Part shown: positions 2,202-56,792 of the stretch, piece after piece
Layout of the letters: every line of letters begins with the position of its first letter
Position numbering within the stretch: position 1 is the first letter of the stretch
Origin: Candidatus Portnoybacteria bacterium
Lineage (GTDB): Bacteria > Patescibacteriota > Minisyncoccia > Portnoybacterales > GWB1-42-6
Direction: 5' to 3'
Length of the DNA stretch: 64,000 bases
Assembly: GCA_016208745.1 (NCBI GenBank)
Contig: JACQXN010000022.1
Coordinates: 19,212-83,211 of the forward strand
Notes under the pieces: model-generated
Seen by the model: only the letters and a program-made list of their open reading frames with translations
Database searches by the model: none
What the model was told of the DNA's origin: nothing
Position numbers and translations under genes: made by a program

Positions 2202-3599
2202 TTACTCTAACTCTACTGTACTCCCCATTTCTGGCACCTGCGCGTCCAAGCCCATCTCATCTCTTATAATTTGCGCCAAAACTCCTGCTGGCTCCTCTTC
2301 TCCGTGAACAACAAAAACTTTCTTGATTGGTTTACAAATATTGCACAGCCATTCTAATAACCCTTTTTGGTCGGCATGCGCAGAATAACCGGTGAAATTT
2401 TTAATCTTTGCCTTAACCTGAATCTTTGCGTCCAAAATTTCAACTTCTTTTTCCCCCTCCATAATTCGGCGGCCCAATGTTCCTTTGGCCTGGTAGGTGA
2501 TCAAAAGAAGAATATTTCTTTCGCCTGACAAATAAAGAGATTCATGGTGTATAATCCGGCCGCCTTGTGACATGCCAGAGCCGGCAATAATAACTTTTGG
2601 CGGAGGAATATTGTTTATTTTTTTTGAGTCTTTAATGGAGTGAGTAAACTGAAGGCCGGGGAATTTAAATATATCGTCACCTGACTTAATTAAGTTTCCC
2701 GCTTCTTGATTAAAATATCTCTCATGTTTTTTATAGACATCTGTTATATCATGCGCCAATGGACTATCAATAAAAATCGGGATTTGCGGAATACACTTAT
2801 TCTCTGCCAGCTCATTTAAATGAAAAAGCAACTGCTGGGTCCGCTCAAGGGCAAAGCTGGGAATCATTAAAACGCCATTTTTTCTAATTGCTTCTTCAAT
2901 AACATCTTCAATAATATTTTTTGCCTCGTCTGCTTTTTCGTGCAACCTGTCGCCATAAGTTGATTCTATCAAGACATAATCTGCCTCCTCAATTACTTCC
3001 GGCTTTCTTAAAATCGGCACCGGATAATTTCCTAGATCCCCCGAGAAGACAATAACAGATTTTTTATCCTGGGCTTGCTCGCCTCGCTGAAGCTCCGGCG
3101 AAGCGGGTCGAAGGATTACTTTAATTACGGCCGACCCCAGAATATGTCCGGCTTCAAAAAATTCAAAAGAAATTTCATCAGAAATTTTTGTTTCTTGATG
3201 ATATTCTGTTGGTATAAACAACCCCATGATCTGATCTATGTCTTTTTTACTAAAAAGAGAGAGCTTGCCTACGTGCTTGGCTTTCTCGGCTAAAATTTTC
3301 CTGCTGTCTTCTAAAATCAAGTGGACAAAATCTATGGTTGGCGGCGTGGCAAAAATTCTTCCGTTAAACCCGCCCTCAACTAAATTAGGGAGCCGGCCAA
3401 TATGGTCAAGGTGGGAATGAGTTATTAAAACCGCGTCAATTTCTTTTGGATTAAAGGAAAACGGCTCATTATTTTTTGCCTCCAGCTCTTTTTCGCCTTG
3501 AAACGCGCCGCAATCAACTAGGATTTTTGATTTTTCTGTTTCTAATAAATAACAGGCGCCGGTTACAACTTTAGCGCCGCCGCAAAAAGTAAGTTTCAT
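2202..3599 (-). CDS. beta-CASP family MBL-fold ribonuclease (RNase J / CPSF-like)
   Basis: HSHLDH metallo-beta-lactamase motif near the N-terminus; 465 aa with beta-CASP and RNA-metabolising MBL C-terminal regions. Confidence 0.75.
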   Translation of the reverse strand: MKLTFCGGAKVVTGACYLLETEKSKILVDCGAFQGEKELEAKNNEPFSFNPKEIDAVLITHSHLDHIGRLPNLVEGGFNGRIFATPPTIDFVHLILEDSRKILAEKAKHVGKLSLFSKKDIDQIMGLFIPTEYHQETKISDEISFEFFEAGHILGSAVIKVILRPASPELQRGEQAQDKKSVIVFSGDLGNYPVPILRKPEVIEEADYVLIESTYGDRLHEKADEAKNIIEDVIEEAIRKNGVLMIPSFALERTQQLLFHLNELAENKCIPQIPIFIDSPLAHDITDVYKKHERYFNQEAGNLIKSGDDIFKFPGLQFTHSIKDSKKINNIPPPKVIIAGSGMSQGGRIIHHESLYLSGERNILLLITYQAKGTLGRRIMEGEKEVEILDAKIQVKAKIKNFTGYSAHADQKGLLEWLCNICKPIKKVFVVHGEEEPAGVLAQIIRDEMGLDAQVPEMGSTVELE

Positions 3600-3843: not shown

Positions 3844-4116
3844 ATGTCAGAAAATATAGAAGTTATAGAAGTGAAAAATTATACCGTGGAAATTAGAGTT
3901 TTAAGTATCCACTTTATCTTTGCATCGGCTGAAAATGGCAGAGTGCATTTGGTGGCTAGATTCAAGCCATACGCACAGATTTACGACCCAGCTTCTAACC
4001 GCGTCCCAAAACCTCTTTTCAAAGAAGCCTGCCGCATAGCTGCGGCGCGACTGAAATCTCAACAGAAAAGGTCCGTGCCCATAAAACACCTCCGCCAAAT
4101 TAAAATGTGGGGGTAG
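3844..4116 (+). CDS. Hypothetical small protein (90 aa)
   Basis: Consensus promoter plus strong AGGAGG RBS 5 nt upstream of ATG; no recognisable family. Confidence 0.45.
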   Translation: MSENIEVIEVKNYTVEIRVLSIHFIFASAENGRVHLVARFKPYAQIYDPASNRVPKPLFKEACRIAAARLKSQQKRSVPIKHLRQIKMWG

Positions 4117-4225
4117 CTGATATGTGATTCCTCCAAAAAAAACAAAACCCTTAGCAACCACGCTAGGGGTTATTTTTATCCTTATATTCTTTATTCGCCA
4201 TTGCAAAAATTTTGTTATAAAATCG

Positions 4226-4324
4226 CGGCGAGCTGAGTGTTTAAAAAATTACCTACGGAGGAGCAAAGCGACGAGTTTAGGAGGTAATTTTTAACAAAGC
4301 GAGTCCGATTTTATCAAAATTTTA
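4226..4324. repeat. ~100 nt structured repeat (family D copy 1) with 11 bp stem AAAAATTACCT/AGGTAATTTTT
   Basis: Near-identical architecture and flanks to 15258-15356; compensatory stem changes between copies. Confidence 0.6.
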
Positions 4325-4398
4325 TGCTTGGCGAGAGTTTTTTGCCTACTTTTTGTCGGTACAAAAAGTAGGTCCTTGCCGTCTTTAGATAAAGACGA

Positions 4399-5730
4399 TT
4401 AACGCATTCCTCTAAGTTCTTCTTTTACAATCTCGCTCTCCTGCCAAGGAATCTTTTTCCCATTTTCCACACACATCCAAACCTCTCCCCCTTTGCCAGT
4501 TAGAATAACCGCATCTCCGGCTTTCGCTAAACTCAATGCTTTTTTTATCGCTTCACGACGATCTAAAATTTCATAGACATTGGAAATTGGTAATTGGGTA
4601 TTGGAAATTCCAGATTTTATCTCCGATAAAATCTGGGTTGGGTCTTCATCATAAGGATCTTCATTGGTAATAATTACATAATCCGCGTATTCTCCAGCCA
4701 AGCGGCCTAAAGCCGCTCTTTTTGATTTATCGCGGCCGCCGCCCTGTGCGCCAAGCAAAGCAATAATTTTTCGCGGATTAAAAATTTTAAGCGCTTTGTA
4801 AGCCGATTCAAGAGAAGCCGGCTCGTGAGCATAATCAACGATAACTGTAAATGGCTGACCTTCATTAATTACTTCCAAACGGCCCGGCGCTGGTTTGGCA
4901 TTTTTTAGAGCCTCTTTTATTTTATCGACTCCGATTCCTTGCGAAATTGCTACGCAAATTGCCGCCGCAGCGTTATACATATTAACCTCGCCGATAAGAG
5001 GCGTAATAAAATTTTCACTGTTAAAATCGAATTCGGTTCTATCCGAGGCCAATTTAATGTTTGCAATTTGAAGCTTTCCAAATCCTCCCCAACCCTCCCT
5101 AAAGGGAGGGAGCGATTCCCCTCCTTTAGGAGGGGCTAGGGGAGATTTTAAAAAATACCCCATTTTTTTCGCCATTGGAATTTTCAAAAAATATTCTGTG
5201 CTCTCATCATCCAAATTATAAACTCCAATTCCGTTTTTCTTTTTCGCCACGGCTTCAAATAATTTTAATTTTGCTGCCCGATAATTTTCAAAACTGCCGT
5301 GGCGCTCAATGTGCTCGGGCGATAAATTAGTAAAAACCGCGACTGAATAATTAATGCCTTTGTGCCGATGCTGCAGAATTCCCTCTGAAGAAGTTTCAAT
5401 TACCGCGTATTTGCATCCTTCGCTAACCATTTGCCGCAATAATTTCTGCAATTTGAATCGGCCAAGCATAGTCTGCTTATAATCATTTATCCACTCCTTA
5501 TCCCTAATTCTAAAATTTACCGTTGTCGCCATGCCGGTTTTAAACCCCGCGCCCTGCAAAATCTGAGCGATTAAATTACAAGTCGTTGTTTTCCCTTTTG
5601 TCCCGGTCACGCCAATTACAATCAATTTCCGTGACGGAAAACCATACACAAGCGCGCCCAAATAAGCGAGCAACCAATGGTACCAACTAAAAATAAAATT
5701 CGGGATAAGTTTTTTTAGAATATTTTTCAT
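4399..5730 (-). CDS. Mur ligase family protein (MurE-like UDP-MurNAc-peptide ligase) with N-terminal membrane anchor
   Basis: GVTGTKGKTTT P-loop and DYAHEP motif of Mur ligases. N-terminus is a TM helix rather than a MurE N-domain. Carries an in-frame palindromic element at 5079-5149. Confidence 0.75.
   Translation of the reverse strand: MKNILKKLIPNFIFSWYHWLLAYLGALVYGFPSRKLIVIGVTGTKGKTTTCNLIAQILQGAGFKTGMATTVNFRIRDKEWINDYKQTMLGRFKLQKLLRQMVSEGCKYAVIETSSEGILQHRHKGINYSVAVFTNLSPEHIERHGSFENYRAAKLKLFEAVAKKKNGIGVYNLDDESTEYFLKIPMAKKMGYFLKSPLAPPKGGESLPPFREGWGGFGKLQIANIKLASDRTEFDFNSENFITPLIGEVNMYNAAAAICVAISQGIGVDKIKEALKNAKPAPGRLEVINEGQPFTVIVDYAHEPASLESAYKALKIFNPRKIIALLGAQGGGRDKSKRAALGRLAGEYADYVIITNEDPYDEDPTQILSEIKSGISNTQLPISNVYEILDRREAIKKALSLAKAGDAVILTGKGGEVWMCVENGKKIPWQESEIVKEELRGMR
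5079..5149. repeat. GC-rich nested-hairpin element (family A copy) inserted in-frame within Mur ligase CDS
   Basis: AAATCCTCCCC..CCCTCCCTAAAGGGAGGG..CCCCTCCTTTAGGAGGGG..GGGGAGATTTT. Translated in-frame on the minus strand as SPLAPPKGGESLPPFREGWGGF. Confidence 0.8.
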
Positions 5731-6105: not shown

Positions 6106-7194
6106 TCATCTTAAAATATTTCTTGTCGCTTTGTATATCTTGTACCACCATCTATTAAAAATGTAATTGTGCGTGCCGCAAAACGCGACTTCATACCCCC
6201 CAAAACCCTTCTTAAATCGGCTCACACCCGGCCATTTTTGTTCGTCATAACCCCAAAAATCATAATATTTACAGCCCTGATTTTTGACAAATTTTATCTG
6301 CTCCCATTGTAAAAGATGCGGCGCCATCAAACTGCGAGACTCGTTATCGGATCCGCCATGAATATAAATTGCTGTACTATTAAAAATATTTACTAAATTC
6401 GCGGCGATTGTTTTTCCTTGATATTGGGCTAAAAATAATAAATTCTCAAAATTTAACTCACCCTCGCTCTCTCTTAAAATAAGAGAGGGAATTACGTCTG
6501 TATTCTCTCCCCCTCTTAAATTAAGAGGGGGGTGGGGGGAGTTATTTCCAATTTGCAACTGCTTTCTATAATATTCTTTCTCAAAAATCTTTATCCCCTG
6601 TCTTTTTGCGGTCTGATTAAGCAAACTCCAAAATTCTTCAAAGTCTTTTTCGTTATACTCTGTCCTCCTTATTGTTACGCCTTTGCGCTGGGCAAGATTA
6701 ATATTATAACGTGTTTTCTCATGCATAGCCGCCAACAATTCTTCTTCACTTCTATCCAAATTTAAAATCAGAGTCCTGCTTGGCTGGATATCTTTTGTTT
6801 TTGAAAAACCCAACCCCCTTAAATCCTCCCTACTTATTTCAAAAGTCGGCTCGATTCTTAAAAATATCGCATTTTCTTGTTTAGCTAGATGTTTAACTTC
6901 CCGTAAAAAGCCCTGCATTCGCAGGAGATTCATCTCCGCCCGATGGCGGATCAGAATGGCATCTCGTGTTAATTCTGAAATTATTAGAGGGCCTCGCGGG
7001 CAATACAGATAGCTTTTCCCCAGCGGTAAATTATATTTAATTATTAAACCTGCCCAATCTTTGCCTTTCAGGAAAAAAGTTTTTCTCCCTAATGATTTCT
7101 GAAACTCCGCCCATTCTAAAGACTGCAAAAAACCGCCGCCTTGCTTCAAAACAAACTCATTCCAATCCTCTTTTCCGCCTTCATAAATAGCCAT
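6106..7194 (-). CDS. FemAB-family peptidoglycan interpeptide-bridge aminoacyltransferase
   Basis: FLQSLEWAEF N-terminal and LLQWEQIKFVKNQGCKYYDFWG C-terminal motifs typical of FemABX. Likely ATG at 7194 (track start 7239 is TTG). Contains an in-frame repeat at 6457-6541. Confidence 0.75.
   Translation of the reverse strand: MAIYEGGKEDWNEFVLKQGGGFLQSLEWAEFQKSLGRKTFFLKGKDWAGLIIKYNLPLGKSYLYCPRGPLIISELTRDAILIRHRAEMNLLRMQGFLREVKHLAKQENAIFLRIEPTFEISREDLRGLGFSKTKDIQPSRTLILNLDRSEEELLAAMHEKTRYNINLAQRKGVTIRRTEYNEKDFEEFWSLLNQTAKRQGIKIFEKEYYRKQLQIGNNSPHPPLNLRGGENTDVIPSLILRESEGELNFENLLFLAQYQGKTIAANLVNIFNSTAIYIHGGSDNESRSLMAPHLLQWEQIKFVKNQGCKYYDFWGYDEQKWPGVSRFKKGFGGYEVAFCGTHNYIFNRWWYKIYKATRNILR
6457..6541. 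repeat. GC-rich hairpin element (family B copy) inserted in-frame in FemAB CDS
   Basis: TCTCTCTTAAAATAAGAGAG and CCCCCTCTTAAATTAAGAGGGGGG hairpins. Encodes SPHPPLNLRGGENTDVIPSLILRESEGE inside the ORF. Confidence 0.75.
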
Positions 7195-7231
7195 ATTCTT
7201 AATGGCATTGTAGCGTAAAAAAATCCGAAAG

Positions 7232-7262
7232 ACAAACAAAAAAGGCAGTTATGACTGCCTTT
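7232..7262 (-). terminator. Rho-independent terminator for gene 7261-7671
   Basis: Hairpin AAGGCAGTtatgACTGCCTT followed on the minus strand by a T-run. Confidence 0.5.
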
Positions 7263-8745: not shown

Positions 8746-8842
8746 ATTACGTCTCCTCTGTGAGTTTTTAATGCCTGAAAATAATAAATAAAACGAACTA
8801 TCTAGCGAATTGAATTAATAATTGTATACCATAAACCAATTT

Positions 8843-10921
8843 ATGTCAACCTTCAAGCTCCGCGCACCATTTCGCCCAACAGGTGACCAGCCAGGCGCAA
8901 TAAATGCACTAGTTAAAAATTTAAAGACTGGCATTAAGCATCAGACGCTTTTGGGTGTGACAGGAAGCGGCAAAACTTTTACTATGGCCAATGTGATTGA
9001 GAAAAATCAAAAACCAACATTGGTTATTTCGCATAATAAAACTTTGGCGGCCCAGCTTTATCAGGAATTTAAAGAGTTTTTTCCGGAAAACGCCGTGCAT
9101 TTTTTCGTCTCCTATTATGACTACTACCAACCCGAAGCCTATATCCCCCAAACCGACACCTATATTGATAAAGACGTAAAAATCAACGATGAAATTGACC
9201 GCCTGCGCCACGCCGCCACGCAGGCGCTTTTAACCAGAAATGACACGATTGTTGTGGCTTCAGTTTCTTGCATTTATAATATCGGCTCGCCAGAAGAATA
9301 TCAGAATTTGAGTTTAGAGTTTAAGAAAGGCCAATTTTTGAGCCGCCAGAAATTTTTAAGGCATTTAATATCTCTGCAATACCAGCGATCGGATGTTGAT
9401 TTCAAAAGAGGCACATTTAAAGTCCGGGGCGATTTAATTGAGGTCTGGTCAGCCACTGGCGAACAAATATTAAAATTTGATTTTTTTGGCAATCAGATAG
9501 AAAAAATATCAGAAATCAATTTGCCCAATAATATTTTAAAAGCAGACAAGGAAAAAGAAGTTAAACAGGCAAGAGTTTTTCCGGCTAAATACTGGGTCGC
9601 GCCAGAGCAGAAATTGGGCTTAGCAATAAAAAATATTAAATTGGAGCTTGAAAACCAGCTGGAAAAATTAAAAAGACAGAATAAAATTCTTGACGCCGAA
9701 CGGCTTAAGCGGCGCACCAACTTTGACCTTGAAATAATCAAAGAAACCGGCTATTGTCACGGCGTTGAAAATTATTCACGGCATTTGGAATTTCGCAAAC
9801 CCGGCGAGCCGCCTTTCACCTTATTGGACTATTTTCCAAAAGACTATTTATTGATTATTGACGAATCGCACATGACTGTTCCCCAGCTTAACGGAATGTA
9901 TTTTGGCGACCGCTCGCGCAAAGAAACTTTAATTGAGTATGGCTTCCGCTTGCCTTCGGCGCTTGATAACCGACCGCTTAAATTTAATGAGTTCGAGAAA
10001 AAGGTTGATCAAGTTGTCTATACTTCGGCAACGCCCAGTAAGTACGAAATCGAGAAATCAAAGTCTGTCTGCACGAAAAAAAATCCTCCCCATCCCTCCT
10101 CCGTATCAAGTACGGGGCAAGCTCTAAAGGGAGGGAGTGATTCCCCTCCTTTAGGAGGGGCAAGGGGAGATTTTTGCATCATCCAGCAGCTCATCCGCCC
10201 CACTGGCCTGCTTGATCCGGCAATAGAAATCCGTTCAACTAAAAATCAAATTCCACATTTAATCAAGCAAATCAAAGAAACGGTCGAAAGTGGTGCCAGG
10301 GTTTTAGTAACAACAATTACCAAACGCCTCTCCGAAGACTTATCGGAATATTTGCAAGAGCAAGGAATAAAAGCCCAATATCTGCATTCTGAAATTAAAA
10401 CATTGGAACGACCGGAAATTTTGAAAGATTTAAGACTTGGCAAAATCGACGTTTTGGTTGGCATTAATCTTTTAAGAGAGGGGCTGGATTTACCAGAAGT
10501 TGGGCTGGTGGCAATTTTGGATGCTGACAAGGAAGGCTTTTTGCGCAATGACACAACGCTTATCCAAACAATGGGCCGCGCTTCTCGCCATCCGCAAGGC
10601 CGCGTTATTATGTATGCTGACAAGATTACCCAATCAATGAAACGCGCAATTTCTGAAACCAATCGCCGGCGCAAAATTCAGGAAAGCTATAATAAAAAAC
10701 ATAAAATCACGCCCCAGCCAATTAAAAAAGGCATCCGGCCAAGCATTGTAGAAATTACAAAAATGCCAAAAGGAGCGCTAAAAACTGAGAAAGAATATCT
10801 GGAAGAATACATTAAGGAGCTTGAGTTTAAAATGGAACTGGCTAATCGGAATTTGCAATTTGACGAAGCAATGAGACTGCAAGAACAAATTAATAAATTA
10901 AAAAGGGCGACGAAAAAATAA
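8843..10921 (+). CDS. uvrB: Excinuclease ABC subunit B (UvrB) with ~33 aa in-frame palindromic-element insertion
   Basis: GVTGSGKTF Walker A, helicase motifs, C-terminal UVR domain. Segment CTKKNPPHPSSVSSTGQALKGGSDSPPLGGARGDFC interrupts the conserved ELEKS...RPTGLLDP region. The track start at 8822 is TTG; the ATG at 8843 is more likely. Confidence 0.9.
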   Translation: MSTFKLRAPFRPTGDQPGAINALVKNLKTGIKHQTLLGVTGSGKTFTMANVIEKNQKPTLVISHNKTLAAQLYQEFKEFFPENAVHFFVSYYDYYQPEAYIPQTDTYIDKDVKINDEIDRLRHAATQALLTRNDTIVVASVSCIYNIGSPEEYQNLSLEFKKGQFLSRQKFLRHLISLQYQRSDVDFKRGTFKVRGDLIEVWSATGEQILKFDFFGNQIEKISEINLPNNILKADKEKEVKQARVFPAKYWVAPEQKLGLAIKNIKLELENQLEKLKRQNKILDAERLKRRTNFDLEIIKETGYCHGVENYSRHLEFRKPGEPPFTLLDYFPKDYLLIIDESHMTVPQLNGMYFGDRSRKETLIEYGFRLPSALDNRPLKFNEFEKKVDQVVYTSATPSKYEIEKSKSVCTKKNPPHPSSVSSTGQALKGGSDSPPLGGARGDFCIIQQLIRPTGLLDPAIEIRSTKNQIPHLIKQIKETVESGARVLVTTITKRLSEDLSEYLQEQGIKAQYLHSEIKTLERPEILKDLRLGKIDVLVGINLLREGLDLPEVGLVAILDADKEGFLRNDTTLIQTMGRASRHPQGRVIMYADKITQSMKRAISETNRRRKIQESYNKKHKITPQPIKKGIRPSIVEITKMPKGALKTEKEYLEEYIKELEFKMELANRNLQFDEAMRLQEQINKLKRATKK
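10081..10172. repeat. GC-rich nested-hairpin element (family A copy) in-frame in uvrB
   Basis: ~85 percent identical over 92 nt to 42961-43054, with the same outer AAATCCTCCCC/GGGGAGATTTT and two inner hairpins. Confidence 0.85.
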
Positions 10922-10929
10922 AGGGCATT

Positions 10930-11792
10930 CTTAACAAGTTGGAACAAGGAACAATGAATTCTTTAAGTATTCATGCGGGTTTTTAAAGATTTCAGGGTGG
11001 TTAAAATTTGCTTCAAATTCAGCCACGACATTTTCTAACTTGGAACCGGTAACGTGATGGTATTTTCTTCTGATAAAAGTCCTTAAATTACCAAATACTC
11101 CCTCTATCTCAGAAGTCAGCCCAAACTCCCATTTGGAATGAATGTCTCTTTGGTGAGTGACCGGCCAGGCATTCTTGATGCCCCGGTAATAGCCGGCTCC
11201 GTCCGTAAACAGCTTTGAGCCCGGCTCAACATGTCTGACAATGAATTGAGAGACGTTCTGTTTCTGAACATATTGTTTTGGGATGACTCGCAAAATTACC
11301 TTTTTGGCCAGCGTGTCTTTGGCTGCGATGACCGCTTTACCTCTAAAGAATGCTTCATCCATCTGAATCGTATCTTTTAGCGGAGAAAGCCAGTCAGGAT
11401 CAGGAATATTAAGCCTGAAGTTATCAAGCCAATTTCTAATTGTGACTTCGCTTAATTCTGTAATTTTAATTGTTTGGGTAATTGGCAAATGATTTAGCCA
11501 ACACCACAGAAGCGTGTAAAATGTTTCCCAGGGCAGCTTCATGTTGGACAGCCAGGTGTTGCTGGTTAGAGAGAAGGGTCTGCGGCATTTTTTACAGCGG
11601 TACCGATTCTCTGATTTGTAGACACTACGGCTTTTGCAACGCGGACAATGCAGATGAGTGCCAAAAAGAATACGCCTAACTATCTTTTTAATCTTAACTT
11701 CTGATGGTATTTGTTTTAAATGATACATAGGAGCAGATTTTTTAAAGATTTTCATCTTTATTGTATCATTGAATCTGTTCCAACTTCTTTAG
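10930..11792. mobile_element. IS1595-family insertion sequence (~860 bp) with 11 bp terminal inverted repeats
   Basis: AAGTTGGAACA at 10936-10946 and its exact reverse complement at 11776-11786 flank a transposase ORF. Confidence 0.65.
10931..11755 (-). CDS. IS1595-family (ISXO2-like) transposase
   Basis: N-terminal zinc ribbon CPRCKSRSVYKSENRYRCKKCRRPFS and a DDE region (IQMDEAFF...TDGAGYY); 274 aa. Confidence 0.75.
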   Translation of the reverse strand: MKIFKKSAPMYHLKQIPSEVKIKKIVRRILFGTHLHCPRCKSRSVYKSENRYRCKKCRRPFSLTSNTWLSNMKLPWETFYTLLWCWLNHLPITQTIKITELSEVTIRNWLDNFRLNIPDPDWLSPLKDTIQMDEAFFRGKAVIAAKDTLAKKVILRVIPKQYVQKQNVSQFIVRHVEPGSKLFTDGAGYYRGIKNAWPVTHQRDIHSKWEFGLTSEIEGVFGNLRTFIRRKYHHVTGSKLENVVAEFEANFNHPEIFKNPHEYLKNSLFLVPTC

Positions 11793-11863
11793 TATACCCA
11801 AATCATAATGTATGCCTAGCCGCGATGGTTTCGTGGCAAAATCACATCATTAGGGAGGCGGCA

Positions 11864-15189: not shown

Positions 15190-15257
15190 AACGCTCCTTT
15201 AATATGTATTAAAAATTCAGCCTTCTCCTTGCATCGAAAAATTTTGCAAGAAAATTG

Positions 15258-15356
15258 AGATGAGCGAGGCGTTTGAAAAATTGCCGAGCGACGAGGGAAG
15301 CGAGGAGTTTACGAGGCAATTTTTAGATGAGCGAATCCAATTTTCTCAAAATTTTA
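15258..15356. repeat. ~100 nt structured repeat (family D copy 2)
   Basis: Matches 4226-4324 including flanks gagcgag..gttt(g/a)aaaaatt and gagcgaatccaattttctcaaaatttt. Stem covaries (TTGCC/GGCAA versus TTACCT/AGGTAA). Confidence 0.6.
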
Positions 15357-15431
15357 TCGCTGCAAGTGGTTTTTTGGTTACTTTTTTGTCATCAAAAAAG
15401 CAACTCTTTACCGCCTTTGGATAAAGGCGAT

Positions 15432-19277: not shown

Positions 19278-19781
19278 TTAGAAATTCTTAAGAGATATTC
19301 TCCTCTCCTTATCTCCGACCCATTCAAATCTAACCCATGTTGCATCTTTTGATATAAGTTTTTTAATCTTCTCCGCCCATTCGATAATAATTATGTTTTT
19401 GGGGTTAGCGGCAATCTCATTAAATCCAAGCGCTGATAATTCTTTGGGACTTTGGATGCGATAGCAGTCAATATGATATAAATTCTCTATCGATACCCTT
19501 CGACTCGCCCCGCTGCGCGCGGCTCGCTCAGGGAATAATTTAGCGGCGTTTACAATAAATCGCTTCATTATAACAAATGTTGGACTCGTAATTTTCTCCT
19601 TGACGCCAAGCGCCTTGGCCAGCCCTTGCGTAAAAGTGGTCTTGCCAGCCCCAAGCTCGCCTTCCAAAGCCAAAATTTTGGCTTTTTTATTTGCCTTATC
19701 GGCAAATAATTCTTTTAGAACCTGACCAGCCAAACGCTTGGTCTGCGCTTCGTTTTTCGTCAAAAAAACCTGCTTTTTCAT
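19278..19781 (-). CDS. tsaE: tRNA threonylcarbamoyladenosine biosynthesis protein TsaE
   Basis: GELGAGKTTFTQGLAKALGV P-loop context characteristic of TsaE/YjeE. Confidence 0.8.
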   Translation of the reverse strand: MKKQVFLTKNEAQTKRLAGQVLKELFADKANKKAKILALEGELGAGKTTFTQGLAKALGVKEKITSPTFVIMKRFIVNAAKLFPERAARSGASRRVSIENLYHIDCYRIQSPKELSALGFNEIAANPKNIIIIEWAEKIKKLISKDATWVRFEWVGDKERRISLKNF

Positions 19782-23035: not shown

Positions 23036-23139
23036 GCGGAAATAATCATATTTTTCTTCACGCCTTCATTTAGATTGGCGCTCGCGCCTCAAGTAGAACC
23101 CGTAGCCAACCCGATGAAGAAAAATATGATTATTTCCGC
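23036..23139. repeat. Family E element: 25 bp perfect stem enclosing a conserved GC-rich loop (TTGGCGCTCGCGCC)
   Basis: GCGGAAATAATCATATTTTTCTTCA ... TGAAGAAAAATATGATTATTTCCGC. Second copy at 30699-30805 with compensatory stem substitutions. Confidence 0.65.
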
Positions 23140-23201
23140 CGTGCTATTTTGTTATTTGGGAAGAATAAAGCATTGTATCATATATATCTAAACTTGTCAA
23201 G

Positions 23202-30698: not shown

Positions 30699-30805
30699 GG
30701 CGTAAATAAGCATATTTTTCAACGCGCCTCTATCAAGTTGGCGCTCGCGCCTATATTAACGAGCCCACAGCCAGCCCGACGTTAAAGAATATGCTTATTT
30801 ACGCC
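30699..30805. repeat. Family E element copy 2 (long stem plus conserved GC loop) in divergent aspS/PBP promoter region
   Basis: GGCGTAAATAAGCATATT ... AATATGCTTATTTACGCC. Loop contains TTGGCGCTCGCGCC as in copy 1. Confidence 0.65.
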
Positions 30806-42960: not shown

Positions 42961-43054
42961 AAATCCTCCCCAACCCTCTCCCCGTATCAAGTCCGGGGCA
43001 AGCTCTAAAAGGAGAGAGCGATCCCCCTCCTTTAGGAGGGGTTAGGGGAGATTT
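42961..43054. repeat. GC-rich nested-hairpin element (family A copy), intergenic
   Basis: Near-identical to the uvrB-internal copy at 10081-10172. Confidence 0.8.
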
Positions 43055-43065
43055 TAGCTAGTCTC

Positions 43066-44213: not shown

Positions 44214-45026
44214 TTATGCGGACATGACGACTGAAACGTCCCAATGATTGCTTTCGTTAGTATATATGGCCCCACTTGGAGAGCGATACTGTTCTGAGCC
44301 AAAAGTGGGAGGTTCTATTTTGGTGAAATTATCTTCTATGTAAGATGTTAATATATCGCTCATCATCAAATCAACTTTATAGCCATTTTCATGGCTGTAT
44401 TGTCCTTCTGAGTGACCAGCCTCTGTGCCGCCAGTAATGTATACGCTGTTAGGGCTAATATTATGATCTTCTACAAGACTAATGACTTCATTAAGAGTTG
44501 TTTGCTTTATGCCTTCTAGTTTGACACATCCTACAGATTGGCCTTGTGCACACGCTGGTTTTACTCCGATGCCATGTGCCGTAAGCAAATCTCTTGCAGC
44601 TTGCTCTGTCATTCCGCCGCTTGGCGGAGGGGGTGGGGGAGGAGGGGTTGGTGTTGGGGCCGGCACATATTTTTCTATTGGTGCAAGATCCGGCCCGCTC
44701 AAATCAATCAGTTGATGGTTAATCGTCCACAAAATTATGTAGGCGCCAAAAAGAAGCAAAAGACCAAGCAGAGCAGATAAGATATAGTCTTTAGCTTGGG
44801 CAGTTTTGCCAACCATATATAAAAATCCGCCAAAAGCAATGGCAGCTACTGCTAGCGCGCCGGCAATGCCAAGCCCCCAGATATAAAGCGCTTTAATATA
44901 TACTCCGGGTTCGGGGTTATCGCCTTCTTTCATTCCGCCAAAGGGAAATTCAATGGCTGAAGCAACTAAGGGCACAACAAAAACAATTATTATTAAAATT
45001 AAGAAAAGCATCGCCTTTTTTTTCAT
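44214..45026 (-). CDS. Pilin-like membrane N-terminus, Pro linker and C-terminal M15/LAS-type peptidoglycan peptidase-like domain (putative T4SS cell-wall hydrolase)
   Basis: Two TM helices, PAPTPTPPPPPPPPSGG linker, SHENGYKVD (Hx6D) and ESNHWD (ExxH-like) motifs reminiscent of VanY/M15. Confidence 0.45.
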   Translation of the reverse strand: MKKKAMLFLILIIIVFVVPLVASAIEFPFGGMKEGDNPEPGVYIKALYIWGLGIAGALAVAAIAFGGFLYMVGKTAQAKDYILSALLGLLLLFGAYIILWTINHQLIDLSGPDLAPIEKYVPAPTPTPPPPPPPPSGGMTEQAARDLLTAHGIGVKPACAQGQSVGCVKLEGIKQTTLNEVISLVEDHNISPNSVYITGGTEAGHSEGQYSHENGYKVDLMMSDILTSYIEDNFTKIEPPTFGSEQYRSPSGAIYTNESNHWDVSVVMSA

Positions 45027-45128
45027 AGAGAAATTTTAAAAATTAAAAGTATGCGTTAGCGTGTGAAAAAATAAATTAATGTTATGACGTCCGACATCGA
45101 TAGAATTCTGGTTTTTAAAATTATGTAT

Positions 45129-45167
45129 AAAATCCCCCTTAATCCCCCTTTAAAAAGGGGGAGATAG
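45129..45167. repeat. GC-rich hairpin element (family B short copy), intergenic
   Basis: aaaatcccccttaatCCCCCTTTAAAAAGGGGGagat; 39 nt near-identical to 56052-56090. Confidence 0.7.
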
Positions 45168-45186
45168 TTGTCTTATGATTTGAAAG

Positions 45187-45639
45187 CTATGCTTTAACAG
45201 AAACCGGCTTAATTTTCCTTTTTAGAAATCCCGGCAGATACCCGCCCTCTTCCAAATATAGCGTGATTATAAAAAAAGTCCAAGTTGGCAGAGCGCCCAA
45301 CACCGGCACAAATTCAACAAGACTGGCGCCAATAAATCTTTTGCTCGGGAATTTATGAAGCTTCCAAAAGCACCAGAACCACAAAATTGCAGTGATTGGC
45401 AGATTGATTATTGTTACTAAAACCGCTAAAAAGACTGAAAGCGTGCAAACTACATCAAGGCTGTCTTTAACAACGCACAGCATGCCAACAAGCGCAAATT
45501 CAACGCCGGTAATCTTTTTGCTTGAGCTGGGTTGTTTTGTCTGCGTTGATTCTTCGTCTGGCTCTTGGCTTGTTTGCGCCCGATTTTGATTTAATTTTTG
45601 CTGATTTAGCTGTTCTTGGGGCATTTGGTTAAGAGGCAA
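45187..45639 (-). CDS. Hypothetical membrane protein of T4SS-like cluster
   Basis: 150 aa, Gln/Ser-rich N-terminus then 3 TM helices. Confidence 0.45.
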   Translation of the reverse strand: MPLNQMPQEQLNQQKLNQNRAQTSQEPDEESTQTKQPSSSKKITGVEFALVGMLCVVKDSLDVVCTLSVFLAVLVTIINLPITAILWFWCFWKLHKFPSKRFIGASLVEFVPVLGALPTWTFFIITLYLEEGGYLPGFLKRKIKPVSVKA

Positions 45640-45666
45640 TTATTGTGGGCTACGAAACACTCTTTT

Positions 45667-45799
45667 CCTCCTCCCCTCAGATGAGGGGAGGATTGAGGTG
45701 GGGTGATGATTATTCGCGTGGACGCATTTGCATGAATTCGCGCCATTTAAATGCAATCAACACCACCCCCTACCCCTCCTCATCTGAGGAGGGGAGGAG
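45667..45799. repeat. GC-rich hairpin element (family B copy with ~50 nt internal palindromic insert), intergenic
   Basis: Same termini as 8289-8377 (CCTCCTCCCCTCAGATGAGGGGAGG ... CATCTGAGGAGGGGAGGAG). Confidence 0.7.
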
Positions 45800-45811
45800 T
45801 TAGAAAATACT

Positions 45812-47638
45812 TTACATCAGCGGGTTTTTTTGTTGAATAGTCTCTTGCTCGGCAAATTCCTGTTTGGCTTTTTCAATTTCTAAAAGTTGCGAAGGGTCAG
45901 AGGTAATAATCTGGTCTTCGGTGTAGGAGGCGACAACTTTTATCGCCACATGCTTTAGCCCGGCAAAAAATATTCCTTCGCCAACATTGCATTCCAAAAG
46001 CAGGTATTTTTCTTGCTCGGTTAAACTAAAGGTCTGTTTGATTATATCAATGGTGGTCGGCGACTGCTTCATTAAAAGCTGTATAGAGGAATTACTGACG
46101 ATTGGTTTGCCGTATTCGGAGCTCATAAAATCAGCAATATCTTGTGTAATAGTTGTTAGGGCGGTGAAATATTTGCGGCAACGCTTGGCAATATGCGTCA
46201 TAAACGAAGCCGCATCTACGTATTTCATCATTACCCAAGCCTCGTCAACCACTAAAAGTCTTTTTTTAAGCCTTTCTGTTCGCATTAGATTCCAAATGTA
46301 GTGTAGGACAATATACATTGCCATTGGCCGCAATTCCTCTTCCATATCGCGAATGCTAAAAGTTACCAATTTATTTTTGGCTGTAATATTGGTTGGCTGG
46401 TTAAAAAAGCCAGTATAAGAGCCAGTAACGTATTTTTCCAAACGCAGGGCAATGGGTTTGCCGCCCTCCATATTCTCTAAAACGGTTTTTAAATCGCCCA
46501 AAAGCGGCGGCGTCATTTTGGAAAAATCAACATTAGGTGTGATATCGCGGGAAGCATAAGTTTCATTAAGCGCTTTATCCAAAATCGCGTCTTCTTGCGG
46601 AGTTAGGCCTCCAAGCATTATTCGAAGCAAACCAACAAGATGTATAATATTGCTTCGTAAAATATCAGCTGGCTGGTCGTCTTTTTGTAAAACAGGTAAA
46701 TCAAACGGGTTAATGTTGTTGGCGGAATTAAGCGAGATTTTAATATATGAGCCGCCGACAGTCTCGGTTAAATATTGGTATTCGTTTTCCGGGTCAATAA
46801 CGATAACATCTGTGCCAAGCATCAGCGATCTTAGAATTTCCAGTTTAACAGCATAGCTTTTGCCAGCGCCAGATTTAGCAAAAATCACGGAGTTATAATT
46901 TTCCATGCTAAATCTGTCAAAGAGCACGAGGCTGTTATTGTGCCGGTTAATGCCATAAAGAATGCCTTTGTTATCCGACAAATCAGAAGAAACAAAAGGA
47001 AAGGTGCTTGATATTGGCGAGGTATTCATTGGAACGTTAATAAAAAGCTCGTCTTTGGCCAGAGGCAGAATAGCGTTAAAACCTGCTTCTTGTTGAAATG
47101 AGGCGGGTTTGGCATAGACCAGTTTTGCCTCCAGCAGTCCCCTTATTTCATTCTCTGTTTCATCAAGCTCCTTGGCTGAGTCGCCAAAAATAGCCAGATA
47201 AAGCCCAAAGCGGAAAAATCTTTCTGTCCCCTGTTGAAGGACGTCTCTTAAGCCCTCCATATCCTGCAAAGAGGTTTCCAAGATTGGGTCTCTGGCTTTG
47301 CCTTTCTCCTGCTCTATGGAAATTTGCGATTGAACATGCCCCACTCTTTTTCTTAATTGTTTTAAGATTAAACCGGTGTCAGCCGGGTGAATAAACATCG
47401 TAATATTTTTTTCTTTATCAAGCGAAAGAATAGGCGAGAGCCAATTGGTTAAAAGATGCCTTGGGTAGGTAAAAACAAAAAGAACGCGGCAAAATTTATT
47501 GCCAATTTCAAGATGGTTGACGCTAAGCTTAATAGCGGGCGGCGCGATTAATTCAGCCAAGCCAAGCGAGGTTTGGTTTGGTTGGTTTGCGGCCGAAGGT
47601 TCGGGGGATTTTTTTCTTGAGAATAAAGAGAAGGCCAT
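45812..47638 (-). CDS. VirB4/TrbE-family T4SS ATPase, C-terminal two-thirds (separate ORF)
   Basis: Walker A AKSGAGKSY, Walker B LLVVDEAW, WLSP motif, VirB4 C-terminal pattern; 608 aa. Confidence 0.8.
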   Translation of the reverse strand: MAFSLFSRKKSPEPSAANQPNQTSLGLAELIAPPAIKLSVNHLEIGNKFCRVLFVFTYPRHLLTNWLSPILSLDKEKNITMFIHPADTGLILKQLRKRVGHVQSQISIEQEKGKARDPILETSLQDMEGLRDVLQQGTERFFRFGLYLAIFGDSAKELDETENEIRGLLEAKLVYAKPASFQQEAGFNAILPLAKDELFINVPMNTSPISSTFPFVSSDLSDNKGILYGINRHNNSLVLFDRFSMENYNSVIFAKSGAGKSYAVKLEILRSLMLGTDVIVIDPENEYQYLTETVGGSYIKISLNSANNINPFDLPVLQKDDQPADILRSNIIHLVGLLRIMLGGLTPQEDAILDKALNETYASRDITPNVDFSKMTPPLLGDLKTVLENMEGGKPIALRLEKYVTGSYTGFFNQPTNITAKNKLVTFSIRDMEEELRPMAMYIVLHYIWNLMRTERLKKRLLVVDEAWVMMKYVDAASFMTHIAKRCRKYFTALTTITQDIADFMSSEYGKPIVSNSSIQLLMKQSPTTIDIIKQTFSLTEQEKYLLLECNVGEGIFFAGLKHVAIKVVASYTEDQIITSDPSQLLEIEKAKQEFAEQETIQQKNPLM

Positions 47639-47687
47639 TAGAATAAATTAAAAAGTAAAAAAAGAATTATAAGCGTTATCCCCCTCT

Positions 47688-47773
47688 TTATAAAAGAGGG
47701 ACTAAGGGGGATTTATATTGAAGACTATTTTTAAAATCCACCCCAGCCCTCCTTTTTTAAAGGAGAGAGCAGG
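47688..47773. repeat. GC-rich hairpin element (family B copy) separating the two VirB4 ORFs
   Basis: Reverse-complement relative of the element at 56006-56090. Lies between the stop at 47777 and the ATG at 47638, which are in the same frame; the intervening 138 nt contains stops. Confidence 0.75.
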
Positions 47774-47776
47774 CCA

Positions 47777-48409
47777 TTATACATTAATAACCGGCCTTTC
47801 TCTGGCGCCGGGGTTATACATTTTATAAAGAAGCTCAACTAATTCATCGTCATTTAGGGCAACTGTTTTTAAACTGCAGGCAGAGAGTCCGGAAGATATG
47901 TATTCCATTCTTTGCCAAAGGCCGGCGCGCATCTGTTGGAAAGTTGGGAGCTTTGTTTCCCCGTTTTTTTTGCCAAACGATTTTTTCATCTTTTCAATAA
48001 GACCGGTGGCTTGTTTTTCAATGCTTTGGGTAAAGGGCACGATGACATAAAAATAAGTGCTCATAATATTAACCATTTGCGATAAATTTTTCACAAAATC
48101 AATATATTCGCTCGTTTGGATTTTTAAAAGCTCGTTTTCCTGTTCAACTCTTTTTTGTTCCAAGGTTTTTAAATAATCAGAAACATCAAATTTTCTGGTT
48201 GAGACCAGAATTTGGATTGGAAAATCAAGCGAGTTTAAAAATTCCTGATAACGATAAGTGATGGCTTCCTGCTCTTCGCTGGATTTTAAAGAGAAATTAA
48301 GAGAGCCGATCATCAAAACCCCCTTTAAAGAGCCGTCTTTCATTAAGATAGCGCCTTCTTTGATTTCAGTGACTGGGATTTTTTTTTTTTTTCTTGCGCC
48401 CTGATTCAT
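47777..48409 (-). CDS. VirB4-family ATPase N-terminal domain (separate ORF); contains A14 tract at codons 6-10
   Basis: GAILMKDGSLKGVLMIGSLNFSLKSSEEQEAI...PIQILVSTRKFDVSDYLK matches the N-domain of Gram-positive VirB4 (Tn916 Orf16/PrgJ-like). T14 on the plus strand at 48379-48392. Confidence 0.7.
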   Translation of the reverse strand: MNQGARKKKKIPVTEIKEGAILMKDGSLKGVLMIGSLNFSLKSSEEQEAITYRYQEFLNSLDFPIQILVSTRKFDVSDYLKTLEQKRVEQENELLKIQTSEYIDFVKNLSQMVNIMSTYFYVIVPFTQSIEKQATGLIEKMKKSFGKKNGETKLPTFQQMRAGLWQRMEYISSGLSACSLKTVALNDDELVELLYKMYNPGARERPVINV

Positions 48410-48432
48410 AAAGTTAATTTAAATATCAAATT

Positions 48433-48497
48433 GTCATTCCTGCGAAAGCAGGGATCCAGGTTTTATGAGTCTGGATTCCCGCTTTCGCGGGAATGAC
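48433..48497. repeat. Family C hairpin repeat (GTCATTCC-TGCGAAAGCA-GGGATCC / GGATTCCC-GCTTTCGC-GGGAATGAC)
   Basis: Internal hairpins CCTGCgaaaGCAGG and TCCCGCtttcGCGGGA with outer GTCATTCC/GGAATGAC inverted repeat. Relatives at 56371-56462 and 56878-56900. Confidence 0.65.
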
Positions 48498-48553
48498 ATA
48501 GAATGTTCTAGGGATTTTGTTGATGTCAGACGTCAGCAGATTAATTGCCTAAT

Positions 48554-48859
48554 TTAAATTCGATTTTTCTTCCAAATAAACATCCTTCCTTTAATTATAT
48601 AATTAATAGAAGCGCCAAGAATGGTAATAAACGGCCGGCCGTTGATTTTAAGAAATGCCAAAGCCAGCGCAAAAAGAGTCAAGGGAATAGAAGCTAGCAT
48701 AAAGAGCCAAAACTCGGCATATTGATACAAAAAGAAAAGGATTGCGCCGGTTCCGCCAAGATACCCAAACTGCTTTAAAGTCAGCGGCCCGACTATTTTG
48801 TCCTCTACTTCTAAAAATTGGGGGACATTGAATTGCATATAAAAAAGCTCAAAGCTCAA
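48554..48859 (-). CDS. Small two-TM protein (VirB3/PrgI-like candidate)
   Basis: 101 aa, two hydrophobic helices, positioned immediately upstream of VirB4 as is typical for VirB3. Confidence 0.4.
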   Translation of the reverse strand: MSFELFYMQFNVPQFLEVEDKIVGPLTLKQFGYLGGTGAILFFLYQYAEFWLFMLASIPLTLFALALAFLKINGRPFITILGASINYIIKGRMFIWKKNRI

Positions 48860-48911
48860 AACTCAAATATCAAAGCACGATTTCACGCTTGGTAATATTA
48901 TCGGTCTTCGG

Positions 48912-48982
48912 AAATCCTCCCCAACCATCCCTAAAGGGAGGGGGTTGTTCCCCTCCTTTAGGAGGGGTTAGGGGAGATTTTA
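48912..48982. repeat. GC-rich nested-hairpin element (family A copy), intergenic
   Basis: AAATCCTCCCCAACCATCCCTAAAGGGAGGG..CCCCTCCTTTAGGAGGGGTTAGGGGAGATTTT. Confidence 0.8.
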
Positions 48983-49041
48983 AAAGCAGCATTGTTTGGC
49001 TGACGGAAATGTTTTAAGCCTCGAGCTTTTAATTTCTAATT

Positions 49042-55796: not shown

Positions 55797-56792
55797 TTAT
55801 TGGTTATTTAAATTTAATTCCTTCGTTATCCTTGTCCAATCTTCAGCTCTCAATGTTTCTGCCCTTTGGCTTGGCGAAATACCAGCTTTTTTTAAGGCCT
55901 CTTCAACTATTTTGCGGTTAATTTTTAACCCTTTTGTTAAGTTACCGGCTAATTGTTTGCGGGGAGCAGAAAAACCGGCGCGGACGACTTTAAAAAAATC
56001 ACTTGCCCCCTCCTTTTTAAAGGAGGGCTGGGGTGGATTTTCTTTTTCTACAAAATCCCCCTTAATCCCCCTTTTATAAAGGGGGAGATGGCTTTTTGGT
56101 ATAATCTTAATTATCGCCGAATCGACTTTTGGTTGCGGCCAGAAACAGCTTTTGGAAACATAATGCAAAATTTTTGGCTGGGCGTAAAATTGCACCGAAA
56201 CCGCCAAGAGACTCATTTCGGGCGGCTCGGCACAAATTCTTTGGGCTACTTCTTTTTGTACCATTAAAATCATTTCGCTTGGCGGATTATTTGATTCCAG
56301 AAACTTTCTAATAACGGGCGAGGTTATATAGTAAGGAAGATTGGCGACGAGTTTGTAATTATATACTTTTGTCATCCCGGGCTTGAACCGGGATCCAGAC
56401 GTCGTTCCTGCGAAAGCAGGGATCTGCTCATTATCCTGGATTCCCGTTTTCACGGGAATGACAAAAAGCGAGGTAATTGGAAATTTCAAGGCATCGCCTT
56501 CTATAATCTCTGCATTTCCATAATCTCTTAGTGTCTCTTTTAAAATTTGAATCATATTTCTCCCTTTTTCAATTGCGATAACCCTTTTTGCTTTTTTGGC
56601 TAATTCTTGTGTTAGCGTGCCAAGGCCCGGTCCAATTTCCAAAATCGTGTCGGCTTTTTTTATTTGTGCGGCTTCAATAATCTTATCTAATATATTTTTG
56701 TCAATTAAAAAATTCTGACCAAGCTGTTTTAGGGGCGTGGTGCCATATTTTGATAGCAGATATTTAATTGTTTGCGCGGATAAAAGGTTCAT
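55797..56792 (-). CDS. rsmA: 16S rRNA (adenine1518/1519-N6)-dimethyltransferase RsmA/KsgA carrying two in-frame repeat-element insertions
   Basis: SAM motif ILEIGPGLGTLT, NLPYYITSP catalytic motif, PQPKVDSAII. At 331 aa it is ~50-60 aa longer than typical KsgA. Confidence 0.8.
   Translation of the reverse strand: MNLLSAQTIKYLLSKYGTTPLKQLGQNFLIDKNILDKIIEAAQIKKADTILEIGPGLGTLTQELAKKAKRVIAIEKGRNMIQILKETLRDYGNAEIIEGDALKFPITSLFVIPVKTGIQDNEQIPAFAGTTSGSRFKPGMTKVYNYKLVANLPYYITSPVIRKFLESNNPPSEMILMVQKEVAQRICAEPPEMSLLAVSVQFYAQPKILHYVSKSCFWPQPKVDSAIIKIIPKSHLPLYKRGIKGDFVEKENPPQPSFKKEGASDFFKVVRAGFSAPRKQLAGNLTKGLKINRKIVEEALKKAGISPSQRAETLRAEDWTRITKELNLNNQ
56006..56090. repeat. GC-rich hairpin element (family B copy) in-frame in rsmA
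   Basis: CCCCTCCTTTTTAAAGGAGGG..ctggggtggatttt..aaaatcccccttaatCCCCCTTTATAAAGGGGGagatgg. Encodes ...KGDFVEKENPPQPSFKKEGA... inside KsgA. Confidence 0.75.
56371..56462. repeat. Family C hairpin repeat in-frame in rsmA
   Basis: GTCATCCCGGGcttgaaCCGGGAT..CCTGCgaaaGCAGG..GGATTCCCGttttcaCGGGAATGAC. Encodes FPITSLFVIPVKTGIQDNEQIPAFAGTTSGSRFKPGMT between DALKF and KLVANLPYY. Confidence 0.75.

Follow-up and report, generated by a model that had tools for sequence, protein, structure and literature searches.

Rickettsia palindromic elements (RPEs; Ogata et al. 2000 Science 290:347, as summarised in PMC10969869) are the best-known palindromic repeats that occur frequently in frame within housekeeping genes. 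Here, we describe an element of comparable behaviour in a 64-kb stretch of DNA (contig JACQXN010000022.1; hereafter, the window) from a metagenome-assembled genome (MAG) of Candidatus Portnoybacteria, which belongs to the Patescibacteria or candidate phyla radiation (CPR). The element is a G+C-rich nested hairpin within the open reading frame (ORF) of uvrB and a copy of a repeat family that we term family A. It is quite probably read through as a near-neutral disordered loop in the linker of the UvrB protein, which acts as a permissive hotspot for such insertions. Like RPEs, family A comprises short multi-copy palindromes that are found between genes as well as in frame in unrelated housekeeping genes, that add a peptide, predicted in the case of family A, compatible with the fold of the host protein, that go without an identified transposase, and that reside in a small genome. 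Compared with RPEs, family A differs in its hosts (Patescibacteria instead of Alphaproteobacteria), in its length (65-99 nt instead of ~100-150 nt) and G+C-richness within a 40% GC genome, in its construction from modular nested hairpins whose outer stems are common to other families, and in that at least five unrelated families reuse one protein loop and turn over rapidly there. In our analysis, the likeness is apt as a functional class defined by behaviour, with no homology claimed and with a host that places family A outside the Rickettsia families by taxonomy, and the features of this class found here are a stable palindrome, intergenic and intragenic copies, a preserved frame, lineage-specific occurrence, and a predicted loop position. 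The first-pass annotation of the window had already proposed RPE-like behaviour in a CPR-like genome, and the identity of the host and the above comparison uphold this as a description of behaviour. No account of coding palindromic repeats in CPR/Patescibacteria was found in the literature, the coverage of which was incomplete, and the present case would represent a kind of phenomenon already known from RPEs in a phylum for which the literature found does not describe it.

Other described systems share some of these traits. Bypass elements (T4 gene 60 and the mitochondrial 'byps' of Magnusiomyces) likewise are hairpins that have been inserted into coding sequence between identical codons. In contrast to them, the inserts considered here are always in frame and stop-free, no stop codon follows the first Cys codon, and copies in other genes are without matched codons, two of three gene-60-type features thus failing. 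Repetitive extragenic palindromic (REP) sequences and REPINs resemble family A in being imperfect, G+C-rich palindromes that occur single or compound, often lie just past a stop codon and show no target-site duplications; REPs are, however, extragenic by definition, whereas 9 of the 21 family-A copies among the matches listed are intragenic. REP and REPIN sequences are mobilised by REP-associated tyrosine transposases (RAYTs), which are IS200/IS605-like. No RAYT was noted in the window, which is part of the genome and incompletely annotated. Miniature inverted-repeat transposable elements such as ERIC, Correia/NEMIS, QMITE1 and Nezha (PMC10969869) are also small and non-autonomous, with terminal inverted repeats (TIRs) and a capacity for in-frame ORF fusions, while family A is without target-site duplication in 18 of the 21 listed copies and, in the 64 kb searched, without a matching parent insertion sequence (IS). 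The best resemblance in Rfam was to the Whalefall-1 RNA motif (RF01762; Weinberg et al. 2010, PMC2864571), which is known from metagenomes only and combines a CUCUCC...GGAGAG-type hairpin with a GGGUGAGGA-like tail; it was matched at 10083-10163 of the reverse strand with 21.2 bits, compared with a gathering threshold of 37, and with 47 nt replacing a 22-nt segment of the model. The match is weak and is attributed here to composition, not to membership; motif and element may nonetheless fall within one broad class of hairpin repeats.

The product of the host gene uvrB is identical to an NCBI protein annotated as UvrB (P0001) from a Candidatus Portnoybacteria MAG, which starts at Met8 and comprises 692 residues. 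Alignment of the product with UvrB from Bacillus caldotenax (2fdc_A) paired residues 10-416 with 4-407 and residues 453-694 with 407-655. As this alignment is contiguous across the site, residues 417-452 are without counterpart in the solved UvrB. This in-frame addition to the 699-residue ORF had been put at ~33 residues in the first-pass annotation; the frame stood, and the length was corrected to 36 residues (CTKK...GDFC). The insertion point lies 14 residues past helicase motif III (SAT). We take the SATP segment of UvrB to be motif III of a superfamily 2 helicase at the end of RecA-like domain 1a, and the segment that follows to be the hinge to domain 3, which places the insert on an interdomain linker.

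At the nucleotide level, the element consists of an outer stem around two inner hairpins, the first of which holds a nested mini-hairpin (Table 1). All of the features initially described for it at 10081-10172 are present, with its end moved to 10174. The two arms of the outer stem are also its TIRs, which form an 11-nt imperfect pair. A nested module of ~24 nt separates the long from the short form of the family and is likewise found in the copy at 42961 and in ortholog locus L021, and hairpin 2 is the module best conserved across family-A copies. Folding of the element as RNA yielded -47.5 kcal/mol (z = -3.8), with none of 200 shuffles equally stable, and its 5' motif occurs six times in the window compared with 0.01 expected occurrences; from the excess of the motif and the superior fold it follows that the element is not a chance feature. 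Its own profile also matches the element on the reverse strand. Of the explanations considered for such a structure, an intrinsic terminator was rejected, given that a simple scan left the element unflagged and that the evident terminators of this genome have other sequences. A known structured RNA, intron or ribozyme was likewise discarded, the permissive Rfam matches (Whalefall-1 and miRNA-precursor models) being weak and compositional; at the gathering threshold, Rfam gave no matches in the window and three ortholog loci. As a separate observation, a Shine-Dalgarno (SD)-like AGGAGG is paired in hairpin 2 of all family-A copies with CCTCCTTT, a segment similar to the 3' end of 16S rRNA that carries the anti-SD.

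Table 1. Positions of the uvrB insert, its substructures, and further repeats and mobile elements in the window.
Feature	Position	Strand	Sequence or description	Basis
Host gene uvrB	8822..10921	+	699-aa ORF; all UvrB Pfam domains present	continuous ORF
Extra UvrB codons	10070..10177	+	36 codons, residues 417-452, CTKKNPPHPSSVSSTGQALKGGSDSPPLGGARGDFC; Cys codons at both ends	PDB alignment gap, codon view
Family-A element, long form	10081..10174	+	94 nt, repeat family	nhmmer E=4.5e-31
Outer stem, 5' arm	10081..10091	+	AAATCCTCCCC	sequence
Hairpin 1	10094-10099 and 10129-10135	+	CCCTCC and GGGAGGG	sequence
Mini-hairpin within hairpin 1	10099-10105 and 10111-10117	+	CTCCGTA and TACGGGG	sequence
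Nested module, ~24 nt	10099..10122	+	CTCCGTA-TCAAG-TACGGGG plus CAAGC	alignment of four window copies
Inner hairpin 2	10143..10160	+	CCCCTCC-TTTA-GGAGGGG	sequence
Outer stem, 3' arm	10164..10174	+	GGGGAGATTTT	sequence
Family-A copy, short form	5080..5149	+	in frame in Mur ligase gene (4399..5730 -), read on the opposite strand as KSPLAPPKGGESLPPFREGWGGF	translation
Family-A copy, long form	42961..43055	+	intergenic, between convergent Wzy_C-type and peptidase genes; no frame open	repeat search
Family-A copy, short form	48912..48981	+	intergenic, in T4SS-like gene cluster	repeat search
Family-C copy	6440-6530		in frame in FemAB gene (6106..7239 -)	
A-like and family-B elements	56019-56089, 56365-56470		both in frame in KsgA/RsmA gene (55797..56792 -)	
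IS1595-family IS	10923-11799		transposase 10931..11755 -; 24-nt TIRs 10923-10946 / 11776-11799, 20/24 matching	
Hairpin repeats in spacers of T4SS-like cluster	45129, 45663-45795, 47678-47765, 48433-48498, 48912			

The element had been regarded as a repeat partly because of a second copy, reported as 85% identical and located at 42961-43054. This copy is real and intergenic, with its end at 43055 and with an identity to the uvrB copy of 84% ungapped and 90% gapped. Family A has four members in the window, of which two lie within genes, and at least 21 canonical copies overall. The short-form copies, which are without the ~24-nt nested module, had been overlooked, as had several related hairpin families. 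A self-BLAST census counted ~16 G+C-rich palindromic elements of at least five families in the 64 kb of 40% GC DNA, five of which sit inside four genes. The inserts in the Mur ligase and FemAB genes are missing in the syntenic relative L020, and both sites are filled by different inserts in other relatives; KsgA, in turn, is longer than PDB 6ifs by two segments.

In a scan of 185,579 species-representative genomes, the 3' half of the element was located at 19 loci in six Patescibacteria MAGs. The canonical set was compiled from the window and from Patescibacteria MAG and metagenome contigs after removal of chance matches, resulting in the at least 21 unique copies mentioned above, whose host genes encode conserved housekeeping proteins (UvrB, SecA, MiaA, a MurC-like ligase, Mur ligases, and a pseudouridine synthase). 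Among the matches listed, nine of 21 canonical copies lie within ORFs, and all nine have a length that is a multiple of three and are free of stop codons, compared with 5 of the 12 other copies having such a length. The tolerance of the element in frame that the first-pass annotation had surmised is in line with these nine copies and with the predicted disorder of the loop in UvrB. A single frame is used per orientation, which reads KNPPQPSLKGG...VRGDF forward and KSPLAPPKGGE...REGWGGF in reverse; among the listed non-ORF copies, the forward frame is open in 6/12 and the reverse frame in 8/12. None of these 12 copies splits a gene, the ambiguous ones at L017 and L132 being genuinely intergenic. 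The copies within ORFs are stop-free multiples of three, a restriction that neither splicing nor bypass would impose, which points to read-through of the element by the ribosome.

Further searches delimited the family. Another abundant family with the same outer stems (...CCCCGGTAGGGAGGACTT...AAGTCTCCCCTACCGGGGGAGATTT), seen at metagenome loci L028-L147, differs from family A in that the terminal hairpins CCTCCCCGGTAGGGAGG and TCTCCCCTACCGGGGGAGA enclose a core rich in A+T; it is almost entirely intergenic, with ~5 of 85 copies in ORFs among the matches listed. A census by insert peptide returned three short proteins in a word-indexed search and one match at E<=0.001 in HMMER, the peptide being too short and of too low complexity for this purpose. 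Canonical family A was absent from IMG/VR, which gave one match to the outer stem only, and a viral vector for the family was rejected on account of this absence. As to placement, the intergenic family-A copies (at 42961 and at L007, L017, L019, L095, L105 and L132) usually start 1-20 nt past the stop codon of the upstream gene, a position that is REP-like and suggests possible roles at mRNA 3' ends.

Variation at the uvrB site was assessed over 120 UvrB orthologs of 59-82% identity, with the linker defined as the segment between SATPxxYE and [IV][IV][EQ]QLIRPTG. The linker spans 4-15 residues in 85 orthologs and contains 20-93 extra residues in the remaining 35, so that the initial statement that the flanking segments are contiguous in other UvrBs agrees with both the short linkers and the 2fdc_A alignment. 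The closest ortholog (P0002 at the syntenic locus L020), which shares 82% of its residues outside the linker, has a linker of six residues and hence an empty site. The contig of this nearest relative with long synteny is without any family-A copy in 22 kb, and the uvrB site of L024 is empty as well. In the orthologs with long linkers, the inserts belong to at least five unrelated hairpin families, some of them compound with several elements together, whose peptides read NPPxPS...LKGG...PPLGGxRGDF (family A), SVIPAKAGIQ...GMTKK (family B), NSPNPPLNLRGG...GEGWGEV (family C), PPPLLDKERV (family D), and RPELVSG...GMT (family E). The corresponding DNA folds with -36 to -59 kcal/mol, compared with -2 to -6 kcal/mol at empty sites. 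Family A occupies the linker of four orthologs (the window, P0004, P0013 and P0018) at an identical codon position and in the same orientation and frame, with the long form in the window and P0013, the short form in P0004 and P0018, and length differences among these resident copies of 0, +6 and -3 nt. In a neighbour-joining tree of UvrB calculated over 632 columns with the linker masked, the family-A carriers fell into two separate clades, each with 100% bootstrap, and several sister pairs differed in state with equal bootstrap (P0037 empty and P0018 family A; P0036 families B+E and P0032 family C; P0017 family B and P0016 family C; P0052 empty and P0048 with another insert). The uvrB linker is accordingly a permissive hotspot for several families, with fast turnover of its occupants.

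The consequences for the protein were modelled with AlphaFold2 using an alignment of 46 sequences, which gave a mean predicted local distance difference test (pLDDT) score of 79.4. Scores drop under 50 over residues 420-449, where successive ten-residue blocks average 31, 26 and 43, and the flanking helix 407-417 and strand 453-455 score 84-94. The core of the model matches solved UvrB structures with template-modelling scores of 0.86-0.90, normalised to the target. The insert, which is without a Pfam domain and is not an intein-sized splicing domain, is thus predicted to form a disordered surface loop between confident domains, leaving the UvrB fold intact. The alignment check proposed with the first-pass annotation accordingly returned an insert that is lineage-specific, being missing at L020, and that is positioned at the interdomain linker in a loop predicted as disordered. 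Tryptic peptides predicted within or across the insert are NPPHPSSVSSTGQALK, GGSDSPPLGGAR and GDFCIIQQLIR. Separately, the UvrB ortholog P0011 (1207 residues) holds an intein with Pfam intein-splicing and LAGLIDADG domains, so that UvrB of this clade hosts two different kinds of selfish insert.

In the reading that we favour, family A would be a small, non-autonomous, G+C-rich palindromic repeat that has spread through Patescibacteria genomes, presumably with continuing mobility through a putative trans-acting mechanism. The copy in uvrB would have landed in the short linker joining RecA-like domain 1a to domain 3 and, as a stop-free multiple of three, is most likely transcribed and translated straight through, which would give a disordered surface loop of 35-36 residues rich in Pro, Gly and Ser. 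The insert would persist because it is near neutral in the linker and not needed by UvrB, and other lineages have unrelated hairpin families in this linker, at times one within or next to another.

Several points weigh against this reading. No adjacent direct repeat of at least 2 nt, as expected from a target-site duplication, was found in 18 of 21 copies (matches listed), no conserved flank was found around family-A copies, and no parent IS or mobilising enzyme for the family was found in the 64 kb searched; it is thus the distribution of the copies that points to mobility. The near-invariance of family A also places the hairpin structure beyond the reach of covariation, the term obtained (-0.96) carrying little information, with either two local hairpins or one long hairpin possible. 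Selection for a structure of the DNA or RNA, and hence some function, could underlie the high nucleotide conservation, and transcription and translation of the insert are what we infer from its open frame. Finally, the shared position, orientation and frame of the copies in uvrB and the Cys codons that flank them are not predicted by random insertion followed by selection.

These Cys codons were inspected separately. Linker inserts of families A, B, C and E bear TGY...TGY at their ends in 7/7 carriers examined (the window, at 10070-10072 and 10175-10177, and L021, L022, L023, L025, L026 and L027), the empty sites of L020 and L024, the two inspected as DNA, have Tyr or His at the flank position, and Cys is found among the 85 short linkers only in P0117 and P0101. 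The in-ORF copies in the Mur ligase, FemAB and KsgA genes are without matched flanking codons. In the window, the Cys codons are part of a TGCA pair (10070-10073 and 10175-10178, 105 nt apart), which was rejected as a target-site duplication because it is self-complementary and lengthens the stem. The flanks possibly go back to an earlier insert that has since had its interior exchanged, or they possibly result from protein-level selection of two cysteines that pin the loop at its base. They might also serve ribosomal bypass as matched take-off and landing codons, a role against which the frame, stop and length evidence speaks. As a tentative and rather doubtful extension of these observations, the uvrB linker and the Mur ligase and FemAB loops may be targeted landing pads, at which a structure-specific system of mobilisation or recombination, common to Patescibacteria, would time and again insert, nest and swap unrelated hairpin cassettes at one codon position and keep their DNA nearly uniform in lineages with saturated synonymous sites. 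The Cys flanks would then mark either the targeting process or a functional need, such as a clamped loop, with bypass as the least likely of these.

Between the four uvrB carriers, the element is 93-98% identical and the whole insert with its flanks 87-94%, with third positions at 77-92%, whereas the four-fold degenerate sites of the host uvrB genes are saturated at 40-57% and overall coding identity is 65-79%. As the codons directly beside the insert are as diverged as the rest of uvrB, this uniformity belongs to the element and not to a transferred gene segment, and the near-identity of the element in the face of saturated host sites implies that the insert is no neutral passenger of long standing. 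The uniformity may have arisen from recent independent insertions of a conserved master, from overwriting by other copies, or from selection on the palindrome. The insert may, for example, have been co-opted: a hairpin in the mRNA or DNA could adjust the expression of uvrB, or the peptide loop could itself be under selection, e.g. when clamped by Cys at its base. Such co-option would be consistent with the identity of the inserts at saturated synonymous divergence of the host, with the occupation of the same site in 35/120 orthologs, with the Cys flanks of four unrelated families, Cys being so scarce among short linkers, and with the pairing of SD-like and anti-SD-like segments in hairpin 2. 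We nevertheless consider it unlikely, since intergenic copies and those in other genes are equally conserved, which makes uniformity a property of the family and not of uvrB, and since the closest relatives are without any insert, the occupants share neither sequence nor length (20-93 residues) and have no peptide in common, and the loop is predicted to be disordered.

A single ancestral insertion, inherited vertically as an old segment of UvrB with later losses and without recurrent activity, would account for the position, orientation, frame and Cys flanks shared by the four family-A carriers, as well as for flanking residues that are kept within clades while the interior varies. This explanation is, in our view, quite improbable, as the carriers are interleaved with empty-site lineages in the tree, third positions of the insert are far more alike than the four-fold sites of the host, the long and short forms are discordant with the host tree, and near-identical copies are found in intergenic DNA and in other genes. 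The first-pass annotation had held that a segment of the same length and conserved sequence in unrelated lineages would indicate ancestral protein sequence. The segment is indeed carried in a separate clade by P0013 and P0018, where it is the same DNA repeat (93-98% identical); this, together with saturated host sites and interleaved empty lineages, argues for recurrence or maintenance of a repeat and not for ancestral protein sequence. Even a single origin followed by overwriting by other copies through gene conversion would still mean an active repeat.

It is very improbable that the element is left untranslated, be it by ribosome bypass from TGC at 10070-10072 to TGC at 10175-10177, in the manner of T4 gene 60 or the Magnusiomyces 'byps', or by excision from the mRNA. 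The matched Cys codons around a stable G+C-rich hairpin in all seven carriers and four families fit bypass, and skipping from Cys to Cys would give back a linker of native length. However, no stop codon follows the putative take-off codon, the next codon being ACG, the gap of 35 codons is in frame and stop-free in every case, insertions and deletions among resident copies are multiples of three, and the Mur ligase, FemAB and KsgA copies are not bracketed by matched codons. Among the matches listed, all nine in-ORF copies are open and of a length divisible by three, 7 of the 12 non-ORF copies are not so divisible, and out-of-frame copies within genes number zero, which speaks against both bypass and splicing; excision is further opposed by the lack of a match to an intron or ribozyme family in Rfam. 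An assembly artefact, conceivable given that the source is a MAG and that repeats can mis-assemble, or a decaying uvrB pseudogene is scarcely credible, as three further assemblies, independent and made from other samples, have the same element at this site and the ORF is intact, with all UvrB domains and 52-58% identity to solved UvrB structures.

If the favoured reading of a family-A copy translated as a loop in a permissive linker is correct, hairpin repeats landing in frame would be one concrete source of the unexplained lineage-specific insertions that CPR proteins often have, the genes hit being essential and encoding UvrB, SecA, MiaA, Mur ligases, FemAB and KsgA. If general, such segments should be masked in CPR annotation and homology modelling, and the repeats would provide natural maps of permissive loops in conserved enzymes. 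Near-uniform DNA in deeply diverged hosts would, moreover, point to a mechanism of mobilisation, exchange or homogenisation in organisms whose genomes are tiny and hold few genes recognisable as those of mobile elements. A hotspot used by several families with fast turnover constitutes a tractable system for distinguishing targeting from selection at one site. Were the linkers and loops in fact targeted landing pads, selfish hairpins would feed the evolution of loops in CPR housekeeping proteins systematically and not as an occasional accident.

Further features of the window were recorded. The IS1595-family IS begins 2 nt past the uvrB stop codon and is absent at the syntenic L020 locus; its transposase was the only one noticed in the 64 kb, and the IS was rejected as parent of family A because its 24-nt TIRs are unrelated to the ends of the element. 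Three G+C-rich segments within ORFs resemble repeat-derived inserts, namely 3064-3120 (ORF 2202..3599 -; hairpin of -24 kcal/mol, translated as KVILRPASPELQRGEQAQDK), 19482-19550 (ORF 19278..19781 -), and 44591-44672 (ORF 44214..45026 -; hairpin of -33 kcal/mol). Two elements of 105 nt (23036-23140 and 30700-30805), each with a near-perfect outer stem of 25-26 bp and the conserved core ...TTGGCGCTCGCGCC..., lie just upstream of a + strand gene (23202.. and 30828.., respectively); they match no Rfam family and could be cis-regulatory RNAs or another repeat family. An A+T-rich repeat pair of 121 nt (4205-4325 and 15237-15357; 76% identical), with the ends AAAAATTTTG...CAAAATTTTAT, is situated at or near gene boundaries, the first copy overlapping the end of ORF 3901..4206 by 2 nt. 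Finally, the cluster at 45100-49000 that resembles a type IV secretion system (T4SS), with a TraG/VirB4-type ATPase (45812..47638) and a PrgI-like protein (48554..48859), has spacers that are unusually rich in hairpin repeats.

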